Shown here in pieces: positions 13,848-16,418 of a stretch of DNA of 64,000 nucleotides. The translations under genes were made by a program, and so were the position numbers. The stretch's first letter is position 1. Each line of letters opens with the position of its first letter. The stretch covers positions 64,001 through 128,000 of the forward strand of contig JAEOUA010000007.1 of assembly GCA_016839555.1 (NCBI GenBank). The letters are read 5' to 3'. A model generated the notes under the pieces. The model was not told the origin of the DNA, ran no database searches, and saw only the letters and a program-made list of their open reading frames with translations. This stretch comes from Promethearchaeota archaeon (lineage in GTDB: Archaea; Asgardarchaeota; Lokiarchaeia; Sigyniarchaeales; SOKP01).

Positions 13848-14058
13848 GAATATTATTATATTTTAAAAGAAAATTAAGAATGATACTATAATAATAATTA
13901 ACTAAATTGAGATTAAATATTCCTATAGTTTCATTTTTAATCTAAAAAGTATAAAAATTAATAAGAAGTAATATTAATAATGTAAAAAAATGAAAATATA
14001 TATTTTTTTAAAAAAATGAAGATATACAACTTAAAATCAAGATCAATAGGTGATATTT

Positions 14059-15288
14059 ATTAGTATTCAGCCGATGAAGCTTTTCTTCCGTGAAATAAAA
14101 GAGCCTATTAGAACCACTATGATAGGAAATTATGCCGTGGCAGGCGGCGTTACCCAGACGGATCCTGATGTCATTTGTGCATTTCCAATAACTCCCCAAA
14201 CCCAATCAGTCGAAGGATTATCTGACGTGGTACATCAAGGTAGATTAAAAGCTGCATTTGTAAATGTAGAATCTGAATTAGCAGCCATGAGTTTTTCTAC
14301 TGCTGCGTGTGCTGCAGGTGCTCGTACATTCACTGCGACAGCTTCTCAAGGATATCTTTTAATGACAGAGGCGTTGCCAATGGCGGTGGGTTGGAGAGTA
14401 CCCTTAACCATGATGATTAGTGCCCGAGCTTTTAATTCCCCAAATCTCTCAATTTGGAATAGCTGGGAATTTACTGAAACGAATTCCGAAATTGGATGGA
14501 ATACCATCGTCTCAGAAAATGTTCAAGAGACCTATGATGCAGCCATTTTATCGGTGATGATGTCAGAGGATTCATTATTTCCAACAATGTTTATCCACGA
14601 TGGGTTTATTATTTCTCATTCCGTACAAAATGTGACTTTAATACCTGATGAAACCGTGCGAAAATTAACTCCTAAGAAACCACGACACCGCATTACGCCA
14701 AAAAAACCGGGAACTTGGGGCGGAATAGTCACTCCAAGCTATTTTATGGAATTTAGAAAAAGCCTCGATGTAGATAAAGAGCCAGTATTAGGTATTATGG
14801 AAGATGTTTTCGACCGATTTGAGAAAGCAACGGAGAGAAGATATGATCTTATTGAAACCTATAACTTGGATAACCCCTCAAATACCGCCTTTATAACGAT
14901 GGGATCCATGTGCGGAAATATAGTAAGTTGGATGACTAAAAATAAAGATGTTGGATTAATTAAGCTTCGCACATTTAGACCTTTTCCTTATGAACAATTA
15001 CAGCAAATCGTAGAAGACTATGGTTTAGAAAAATTAATCATTTTAGAAAAATCAGATTCTCTGAATGGAATGCTACCTCCGTTCTCGATGTCAATAGCAT
15101 CAGCACTTTACCCGCTGGGTACCTTGTTCAGAAGCTTTATCGTAGGATTAGGTGGCAGGGATGTCACCAGAGATGAGTTAAACATCGCACGAAAAAAAAT
15201 GGAAAATGTAAAAGATATGAAAGGTAAGCTTTATATGTATCTCGGTGTGAGAGAAACTAAAAATAAAATTTATGGGGTGAATATGTAA
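14059..15288 (+). CDS. porA: 2-oxoacid:ferredoxin oxidoreductase alpha subunit (start ATT 14059 inferred; GTG 14050 or ATG 14074 are alternatives)
   Basis: MIGNYAVA, AFPITPQT, VESELAA, TATASQG, KLRTFRPFP, GLGGRD; AGGTGA SD at 14048-14053. Confidence 0.92.
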   Translation: MSIQPMKLFFREIKEPIRTTMIGNYAVAGGVTQTDPDVICAFPITPQTQSVEGLSDVVHQGRLKAAFVNVESELAAMSFSTAACAAGARTFTATASQGYLLMTEALPMAVGWRVPLTMMISARAFNSPNLSIWNSWEFTETNSEIGWNTIVSENVQETYDAAILSVMMSEDSLFPTMFIHDGFIISHSVQNVTLIPDETVRKLTPKKPRHRITPKKPGTWGGIVTPSYFMEFRKSLDVDKEPVLGIMEDVFDRFEKATERRYDLIETYNLDNPSNTAFITMGSMCGNIVSWMTKNKDVGLIKLRTFRPFPYEQLQQIVEDYGLEKLIILEKSDSLNGMLPPFSMSIASALYPLGTLFRSFIVGLGGRDVTRDELNIARKKMENVKDMKGKLYMYLGVRETKNKIYGVNM

Positions 15289-15289
15289 A

Positions 15290-16418
15290 ATGTCAAATGG
15301 AGATAGAAATATTATAACGATGGAAGATATATTAGCGAGAGAAGGTAAATGCAATGTACTATTTCTAAACTATGATAACGAGGCATTTATGAACACCGGA
15401 ATCCAAGGGAATTCTACATTTTAGTAGAATTCTGGAAAAATCTGGTGGTACGCCTCCATATGCAAGTACAACTACAGGACCAGCAGGAGAAAAAATACCC
15501 GGAAAAGTTGGAGTGAAACAAGATTTAGTCACTCCATTTGCATTTTATGGTTCAAAAAAATTGTTTTTAGCAACGGTAAATCCAGCATATCCTCTTGATT
15601 TAATGGGAAAAATAATGGATGCCCTTAAATCCGACGGATCAGCTTTTATACAGGCCTTAAGTGATTGTATGAGAGGCTGGAGGCATGATGCTAAGGATGC
15701 TTTGAAAATCTCTAAACTTGCGACTGATAGTGGGTATTGGCCTTTATATACCATTCGAGTTGAAGAGGGTATACCCGTATTTTCATATTATAGAGGACTT
15801 GATATTGATAAAGATAAGTTTGTGGAATTTTTGCAATCTATGGGGCGCTTTAGGCATCTTTTTAAACCAAAATTTATGGAAAAAGAAATCAATGAAATAA
15901 TCTTTCAAACGGAACAAAGAAACAAGAAGATAAAGGGGTTAATTGAACAGTTTGGCGCTGATAAACCTAAAGACATCTATAGAATTGATAGAAAAGCATT
16001 AAAACCACAGGAGCATTTGCTTCCTGGACATGGCTTATGCCCAGGGTGCGGTGCGGGCATGGTTCTTTTTCAAATGGCTACAGCAGCTTATCAAGTAGCT
16101 GGTAATAATATGATCTATGTAAATAATACAAGCTGCTCGGAAGTTTCAACATCAAAAGATAATGTGACCTCTTGGAAAGTACCTTGGGTACATCATCTCT
16201 TTGAATCAGGTGCCACCGTTGCTGATGCTCTGGCAACTGCTTATAAAATTTTGAAAAAGAAAGGTTTATTTGGAAAACCAATGGAAGAAGAGGTGCCTTA
16301 TGTTATTCATATCGGTGGGGATGGCAGTACTTATGATATAGGATTTCAATTTTTGAAAGCAGCATTAATTCGGACCAGTACTTTCATGGAAATGAGCGAA
16401 CTTTTAAACGAAAAATAA
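15290..16418 (+). CDS. porB: 2-oxoacid:ferredoxin oxidoreductase beta subunit, circularly permuted and intron-containing: join(15290..15407,15439..16418), 365 aa
   Basis: Exon 1 MSNGDR...NYDNEAFMNTGIQ; exon 2 (E)SGGTPPYASTTTGPAG...LSDCMRGW...PGHGLCPGCG...TSCSEV...GGDGSTYDIG. The ORF track shows only 15513-16418. Confidence 0.88.
15408..15438 (+). other. Putative 31-nt archaeal bulge-helix-bulge intron in porB mRNA
   Basis: Central helix TCCA/TGGA with 3-nt bulges AGG and AAA, 9-bp intron stem, 7-bp exon-exon stem; removal restores the frame and deletes in-frame TAG TAG. Confidence 0.85.

Follow-up and report, generated by a model that had tools for sequence, protein, structure and literature searches.

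How can a gene yield its enzyme when its reading frame is broken, after codon 39, by 31 nucleotides (nt) that bring stop codons and a change of frame? This question is raised by a porB-like gene, probably for a subunit of a 2-oxoacid:ferredoxin oxidoreductase, at positions 15290 to 16418 of a 64,000-nt stretch of DNA (hereafter the window) that spans positions 64,001 to 128,000 of contig JAEOUA010000007.1 in the Promethearchaeota archaeon assembly GCA_016839555.1 (hereafter G000), a metagenome-assembled genome estimated to be 92% complete with 6% contamination. The answer that we favor, with a probability of roughly 0.87, is that nucleotides 15408-15438 form a tRNA-type bulge-helix-bulge (BHB) intron within the coding sequence, which would be spliced out at 15407/15408 and 15438/15439 by the splicing endonuclease EndA and the RNA ligase RtcB. 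The parts of the gene and of the proposed fold are as follows (bp, base pairs; MFE, minimum free energy).

15290 to 15407, forward strand: exon 1 of the permuted porB-like gene, 39 codons and the first base of a Glu codon, with an N-terminus that matches the orthologues
15380 to 15456, forward strand: whole folded element in the MFE structure, including an extra exon-exon helix (GAGGC 15380-15384 with GCCUC 15452-15456)
15394 to 15400, forward strand: 5' strand of the outer exon-exon helix h, CACCGGA, pairing with 15441-15447 with one G-U pair
15402 to 15405, forward strand: 5' strand of the central 4-bp helix H, UCCA, in exon 1, with four of four pairs
15406 to 15408, forward strand: 5' bulge, AGG, with the predicted cut at 15407/15408
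15408 to 15438, forward strand: candidate 31-nt BHB mini-intron ("type A"), which starts at the third base of the 5' bulge, runs through a 9-bp hairpin capped by a 6-nt loop and then the 3' strand of the central helix, and ends two bases into the 3' bulge
15409 to 15432, forward strand: inner helix h', a perfect 9-bp stem (15409-15417 with 15424-15432) with loop AUUUUA
15433 to 15436, forward strand: 3' strand of the central helix, UGGA, in the intron (from the sequence and RNAfold)
15437 to 15439, forward strand: 3' bulge, AAA, with the predicted cut at 15438/15439
15441 to 15447, forward strand: 3' strand of the outer helix h, TCTGGTG, in exon 2 (from the sequence and RNAfold)
15439 to 16418, forward strand: exon 2 of the porB-like gene, which completes the Glu codon with two bases and continues with 325 codons and the stop

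Read without splicing, the frame of exon 1 runs to ...YDNEAFMNTGIQ (whole frame MSNGDRNIITMEDILAREGKCNVLFLNYDNEAFMNTGIQ), continues as GNSTF and ends at an in-frame TAG TAG (15422-15427) that lies within the inner helix, while SGGTPPYASTTTGPAG resumes at 15441 in a different frame that stays open for 325 codons to 16418. The MFE structure returned by RNAfold for 15375-15460 was the proposed BHB itself at -30.1 kcal/mol, and none of 200 dinucleotide shuffles folded as well (-15.07 +/- 2.94 kcal/mol; z = -5.11). The central helix UCCA/UGGA is complete and is flanked by the 3-nt bulges AGG and AAA, with the perfect 9-bp h' on one side and, on the other, the 7-bp h, with a single A-A mismatch between it and the 3' bulge. 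If each bulge is cut after its second base, the splice product would be MNTGIQESGGTPP, and removal of 15408-15438 leaves 1098 nt, or 365 codons and a stop. Within a 130-nt segment, the sole BHB register with four of four central pairs was the one that yields the conserved peptide YDNEAFMNTGIQESGGTPPYASTT. The first-pass annotation, made from the letters of the window, had put forward this same intron: its coordinates and letters were all correct, its fold is the one that RNAfold returned, and the 365-residue frame reading ...GIQESGGTP... that it predicted after excision agrees with the intron-less orthologues described below.

An insert that interrupts a gene in a metagenome-assembled genome, and one with 6% estimated contamination, might be an artefact of sequencing or assembly, that is, 31 nt that are not in the DNA of the organism. 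The same 31 nt were found, free of indels, in contigs from three other runs belonging to three studies of marine sediment and marsh. One of these contigs (X2; 1155 nt) covers 15000-15512 with 0 differences, two 151-nt contigs from the marsh study (X4) carry the insert, and a 321-nt contig (X5) derives from a diverged strain with 12 differences, including A15416T in the stem, and carries it as well. Given that analogous inserts are also present in four other metagenome-assembled genomes, we consider an artefact to have next to no chance of being the explanation.

To place the insert in its evolutionary context, we compared orthologues of the porB-like gene, which were found in 40 of the 41 relatives examined and in 130 of 161 genomes of the class Promethearchaeia (E <= 1e-40). 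No insert was present in 15 of 20 orthologous loci and in 11 of 13 further loci, where the site reads MNTGIQ(E/Q)S(G/S).TP; the intron-less DNA reads ...ATGAAYACNGGNATHCARGARTCN..., encoding MNTGIQESGG, with Q in place of E in one locus. Across the 26 loci read at the site, the intron-less junction equals the product of removing 15408-15438 (CAA-G/AA-TCT), and some 120 further orthologues, taken from a class-wide table of full-length matches, run unbroken through it. Among the roughly 125 informative genomes, the gene is broken at this spot only in G000, G002, G005, G008 and G014. Breaks in five others (G041, G058, G069, G148 and G160) were rejected as introns, these being contig ends, an N-run or an earlier natural stop.

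The inserts in the other four genomes are not the type-A intron. They form a second type ("type B") located 6 nt upstream of the type-A site, after ACUGGAA, and are found both in the genus of the window (G005 and G002) and in two other genera (G014 and G008). Three are 30 nt long with an in-frame TGA, and that of G008 is 31 nt long and shifts the frame. In the predicted type-B fold, the 5' strand of the central helix is CUGG, the 5' bulge is AAA or AAG, and the 3' strand is ACAG, GCAG or CUAG, followed by a 3-nt bulge; the inner stem has 9 bp, with one bulged A in G008. Because the MAFFT alignment followed exon homology for type A and misplaced the G008 gap to the other side of the stem, pairs were read for each sequence separately. 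When the cuts are placed after the second base of each bulge, four of four type-B alleles read GGA-AUY-CAR and thereby TGIQES, and a shift of the cuts by one base would swap the invariant Ile for another residue. Taking both types together, the cuts expected from the bulge rule restore the exact intron-less orthologous sequence in five of five alleles. Between G005 and G002, moreover, all nine stem pairs are kept through three compensatory double changes and one change from G-U to A-U.

The similarity among type-B introns does not follow taxonomy. G005 and G014, from different genera, share 27 of 30 positions, and G005 and G002, from the same genus, share 18 of 30 (L002, L017 and L020, approximately 1457-1493), with the flanking third codon positions of G005 and G014 near saturation (16 of 33 shared). 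This likeness across genera may be due to lateral spread to a favored site, to tight constraint on a hairpin rich in A and U, or to coincidence within 30 nt. No second copy of either intron sequence was found in the carrier genomes, and for this reason a mobile element repeated with its sequence conserved was discarded as an explanation.

The stop codons that follow the break within a stable hairpin are also reminiscent of bacteriophage T4 gene 60, and the ribosome could in principle cross the insert without splicing, by hairpin bypass, read-through or frameshifting. Gene 60, however, relies on matched take-off and landing codons in frame, and none are present here; the sole repeat, AUC at 15401-15403 and 15440-15442, would put the ribosome out of frame. 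In the 30-nt alleles, read-through would add 10 residues within the invariant NTGIQES motif, a single mechanism would have to serve inserts of both 30 and 31 nt at two positions, and the BHB geometry would be left as an unexplained coincidence. We therefore regard translational recoding as very improbable.

A scan of G000 for BHB hairpins of 26-36 nt whose removal fuses two open frames recovered the porB-like gene and four similar cases, each with a 9-bp stem, a 5-6-nt loop and a total length of 30 or 31 nt, and a further case was found by eye. These candidates are listed here by contig, with the locus label in brackets.

C6:53409-53438 (L076), reverse strand, approximately 10.6 kilobases before the start of the window: CoA-transferase III gene, 30 nt, removal restores VIKVE / PPP
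C10:447264-447293 (L073), reverse strand: gene of the HDAC (histone deacetylase) family, 30 nt, removal restores HTG-D-GN, the insert splitting the HxGDG active-site motif
C12:205678-205708 (L075), forward strand: AMP/thymidine phosphorylase gene, 31 nt, removal restores DKHS-T-GGV, the insert splitting the DKHSTGG motif
C10:139518-139548 (L074), reverse strand: MoxR-like AAA ATPase gene, 31 nt after Walker B, removal restores DEIDKAD / IEFPNDLL
C12, around 69935-69962 or about 69953-69980 (L077 1474-1501): rnhB, for RNase HII, a 28-nt BHB insert found by eye, removal restores DEAGR / GP

At least five genes of G000 besides the porB-like gene are thus split in the same way, and all six inserts lie in highly conserved motifs. 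The insert in rnhB, the only RNase HII gene of G000, holds an in-frame TAA between DEAGR and GPVLGPM, in the DEAGRGP motif. Comparison with Pfam showed that the two exons of three of the other genes continue each other: CoA_transf_3 matched at positions 2-33 and 35-366, Hist_deacetyl at positions 4-154 and 193-296, and the phosphorylase exons matched Glycos_trans_3N and then Glycos_transf_3 from position 11. Neither half of the MoxR-like gene matched Pfam at E <= 0.01. Its upstream exon is only 51 codons long, which suggests further introns upstream in this gene.

We also attempted a census, using strict and relaxed BHB scans with a test for restoration of the open reading frame, but the 131 and 243 hits obtained were mostly AT-rich intergenic junctions. 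In a mirror-sequence control there were 13 hits compared to 32 in the real sequence, an imperfect comparison in that mirrored DNA lacks real open reading frames, and a codon-usage filter dropped true cases, including the porB-like gene, while keeping dubious ones. Three candidates (C9:61271-61301, C10:421441-421472 and C5:504469-504498) were dropped as they look non-coding. Given the number of false positives, we report those cases confirmed by motif and Pfam continuity, and give no total for coding-sequence introns in the genome.

A third possibility is that the gene is dead: a small palindromic DNA element inserted and was never removed, and the enzyme has been lost in these strains. The stops or frameshift that the insert brings, its presence in only 5 of about 125 informative genomes and the existence of other PorB paralogues in G000 would all fit such a scenario. 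Yet all 325 codons of exon 2 are intact, with a ratio of nonsynonymous to synonymous divergence (pN/pS) of 0.03-0.2. For G000 against its orthologues, pN was 0.055-0.156 and pS 0.69-0.86 (pairs from 0.055/0.70 to 0.156/0.79), and between intron-bearing alleles, where pS is saturated, pN/pS was 0.06-0.20; such pairwise values mostly reflect history before the insertion, with only X5 and the comparisons of type B with type B bearing on the time after it. In the diverged intron-bearing strain X5, the eight differences in exon 2 comprise six synonymous third positions and two conservative replacements (TAT to TTT, Tyr to Phe; CTT to ATT, Leu to Ile). These patterns indicate that the porB-like gene is under purifying selection. 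Decay likewise offers no account of the exact BHB geometry, of cuts that restore the orthologous sequence to the base or of the compensatory changes in the stem, and the single rnhB and the other conserved genes split alike cannot all be dead. A pseudogene thus appears improbable, and an intron in a working gene remains the reading that we prefer. Several expectations attached to the intron when it was first proposed were borne out by these comparisons: relatives were expected to show intron-less alleles or compensatory stem changes, and both were found; the 31 nt proved to be genomic, as judged from independent metagenome contigs; other split genes with BHB motifs were indeed present in G000; and the further decay of the gene that would have spoken for a pseudogene was not seen.

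Splicing of this kind would require both an endonuclease and a ligase, and G000 encodes two EndA paralogues, at C3:44866-45462 and at C4:242995-243621, reverse strand, together with RtcB, at C6:295945-297252, and Archease, all above the Pfam cut-offs, the RtcB and Archease genes being intact. Aligned with two-domain EndA, one paralogue corresponds to the catalytic half and is alpha-like, with the Tyr/His/Lys catalytic triad, while the other corresponds to the structural half, is beta-like and lacks the His. As judged from these alignments, the pair probably fits an alpha2-beta2 enzyme, a form of EndA reported to be broad in specificity and to be tied to cbf5 mRNA splicing (PMC5829648, PMC2724299); Yoshinari 2006, as cited in PMC12397907, also ties the type of EndA to cbf5 mRNA splicing. 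The cutting rule applied here yields the canonical 37/38 site in the tRNA-Gly(GCC) and tRNA-Ser(GGA) genes of G000. Introns of 8-43 nt were called in 17 of the 28 tRNAs found with aragorn, whose placement of introns is heuristic, and they agreed with the BHB rule in length in 4 of the 17 and exactly in one. Many of these 17 tRNAs probably have non-canonical introns, and tRNA genes of G000 (28 found) have probably often been missed through multiple or non-canonical introns.

What enzyme the interrupted gene encodes was also examined. It begins directly downstream of the following gene, with its ATG at 15290, one base after the porA-like open reading frame ends at 15288.

14050 to 15288, forward strand: porA-like gene, for the alpha subunit of a 2-oxoacid:ferredoxin oxidoreductase, directly upstream of the porB-like gene and in the same operon

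The porA-like product matches Pfam POR_N (6.5e-54) and PFOR_II (2.3e-13), and scores 306 bits against NCBIfam PorA_Arch, under the equivalog cut-off of 550. Exon 2 of the porB-like gene aligns with its orthologues end to end (E down to 1e-211). Against NCBIfam PorB (NF008819), the PorB-like protein scores 214.5 bits, compared to a cut-off of 405, and does so in two stretches of permuted order. BLASTP of an intron-less orthologue against the canonical PorB paralogue of the same genome revealed the permutation to be circular, with residues 21-180 corresponding to canonical 129-282 and residues 224-356 to canonical 5-132. The breakpoint falls inside the GDG-X-NYDN motif for thiamine pyrophosphate (TPP) and Mg, between the GDG and NYDN halves. 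In the protein of 15290-16418 and in its orthologues, then, the C-terminal 60% comes first and the half with CxGC...GDG last.

Like canonical pyruvate synthase PorB, the protein has the elements of the TPP-binding beta-subunit fold, CxGC, GDG and NYDNEAFMNTGIQ, and a porA-like neighbor, but it is permuted, scores below the cut-off and lacks an adjoining gamma or delta gene, no such gene having been found next to the porA-like/porB-like pair. From its sequence, the interrupted gene is not canonical porB but a PorB-like paralogue with a circular permutation, encoding the beta subunit, which binds TPP, of a 2-oxoacid:ferredoxin oxidoreductase made by two genes. It is single-copy in G000, alongside the other PorB paralogues mentioned above. 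The first-pass annotation had called the gene porB and a central metabolic gene; the name needs amending accordingly, and the latter description is overstated, given that the paralogue is permuted and falls below the NCBIfam PorB cut-off. A literature search on permuted PorB found no paper. In one other genome (G148, contig C34, L069), the porA-like and porB-like genes seemed joined in a single open frame of 715 residues, but the join crosses a stretch of N, and we rejected a gene fusion in favor of a scaffolding gap.

Taken together, these observations suggest a model for expression of the gene. The porA-porB transcript would fold into the BHB, and EndA, probably as an alpha2-beta2 enzyme of the catalytic and the His-less paralogues, would cut it at the two bulges to leave 2',3'-cyclic phosphate and 5'-OH ends. 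RtcB, aided by Archease, would then join the exons to give CAA-GAA-UCU (Gln-Glu-Ser), and the 31-nt hairpin would be released, possibly as a circle. Since the unspliced mRNA would yield only a 44-residue peptide, ending at UAG UAG, production of the enzyme would depend on the tRNA-splicing machinery. Half of the BHB lies in translated exon 1 and would be melted by ribosomes, so that splicing probably precedes translation of the porB-like gene. There is no sign that splicing is regulated, and the intron is most simply viewed as a tolerated insertion of a kind common in the lineage.

Several points weigh against this interpretation. The BHB is imperfect, in that A15401 faces A15440 as a mismatch that separates the outer helix from the 3' bulge. 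The outer helix is nearly absent in the type-B alleles, making for a relaxed motif, and three of the four have only three of four central pairs; these alleles would need an endonuclease of broad specificity. Coupled translation of porA and porB would compete with folding of the BHB, and the pre-insertion share of the pairwise divergence noted above tempers the argument from selection. In addition, a search of sequencing runs found no RNA run containing this stretch, and cleavage and ligation are thus inferred.

The closest known counterpart is the intron in cbf5 of Crenarchaeota (Watanabe 2002; Yoshinari 2006; Yokobori 2009, PMC2738675). The two have in common a short BHB intron within coding sequence, removal by EndA and a ligase and an association with an alpha/beta hetero-oligomeric EndA (both predicted here), and a patchy presence among relatives that implies gain and loss, lineage-specific gain and loss having been described for cbf5. 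In both, the insertion breaks the frame inside the coding sequence, here by 31 nt after codon 39. In contrast to cbf5, the host here is an Asgard archaeon of the class Promethearchaeia and the gene, at a different locus, encodes a PorB-like oxidoreductase subunit; orthologues carry two unrelated introns at sites separated by 6 nt; and the intron is one of several mini-introns of 28-31 nt in its genome. Splicing has been shown experimentally for cbf5, whereas here it is deduced from sequence.

A 2020 study names cbf5 as the only additional BHB intron reported in mRNA and adds a case in a 5' untranslated region of Haloferax (PMC7714728). This intron, of Haloferax volcanii HVO_1309, resembles the one described here as an mRNA substrate of the archaeal splicing endonuclease (predicted here), but it lies in an untranslated leader and its removal restores no frame. 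A 2025 paper on EndA structure cites only the cbf5 work (PMC12397907), and a 2026 preprint on Asgard introns is confined to tRNA genes, with no "mRNA" in its text and "protein-coding" used only for neighboring genes. Those tRNA introns are alike in motif, predicted cut positions and enzymes, and similar in size range; here, in contrast, the host is an mRNA, an invariant peptide has to be encoded by the exonic portion of the motif, and splicing would produce a reading frame instead of a folded RNA. The first-pass annotation also drew a parallel with eukaryotic XBP1 splicing and suggested possible regulation, both of which are speculative. The likeness to HAC1/XBP1 splicing is by analogy only: both are independent of the spliceosome, an endonuclease cuts at stem-loops, RtcB performs the ligation in animals, and a change of frame decides the protein. 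In HAC1/XBP1, however, the enzyme is IRE1, a kinase-RNase, rather than EndA/TSEN, the structure is a pair of stem-loops with 7-nt loops, one at each splice site, rather than a BHB, and splicing is regulated by stress and alters the C-terminus, whereas the porB-like intron gives no sign of regulation and its unspliced form would give no enzyme. Full-text literature searches found no paper on BHB introns in Asgard coding sequences. These comparisons support classifying the porB-like intron as a predicted pre-mRNA BHB intron of the cbf5 type in a new lineage and gene, within what would be a wider, unpublished Asgard pattern.

More tentatively, the intron may be one of a population of BHB mini-introns of 28-32 nt that have repeatedly entered protein-coding genes of Loki-type archaea, prefer the most conserved motifs and are able to reach the same site in different genera. 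The two unrelated introns 6 nt apart within one genus, the likeness of type-B introns across genera and the presence of at least six split genes point in this direction, whereas the absence of a second copy of either intron from the carrier genomes speaks against mobility as a repeated element. We consider this broader proposal less likely than not. The intron-less and intron-bearing alleles, with two sites 6 nt apart, offer a clean natural system for the origin and movement of BHB introns.

The papers that we found treat EndA-spliced introns in archaeal coding sequences as a lone curiosity, confined to cbf5 in Crenarchaeota. The data presented here imply that, in the archaeal lineage nearest to eukaryotes, expression of a conserved enzyme gene depends on the tRNA-splicing machinery, and that more such genes exist in the same genome. 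Gene callers split or truncate such genes in Asgard metagenome-assembled genomes, the porB-like gene having been called as two products of 44 and 301 residues, and metabolic reconstructions therefore wrongly score genes as missing or broken. At some genes, moreover, translation would have to await RNA processing, which bears on the separation of transcription and translation in eukaryotes. If the porB-like intron does belong to a population of mini-introns, then the closest archaeal relatives of eukaryotes would already have had many intron-interrupted mRNAs for which enzymatic splicing was needed prior to translation.

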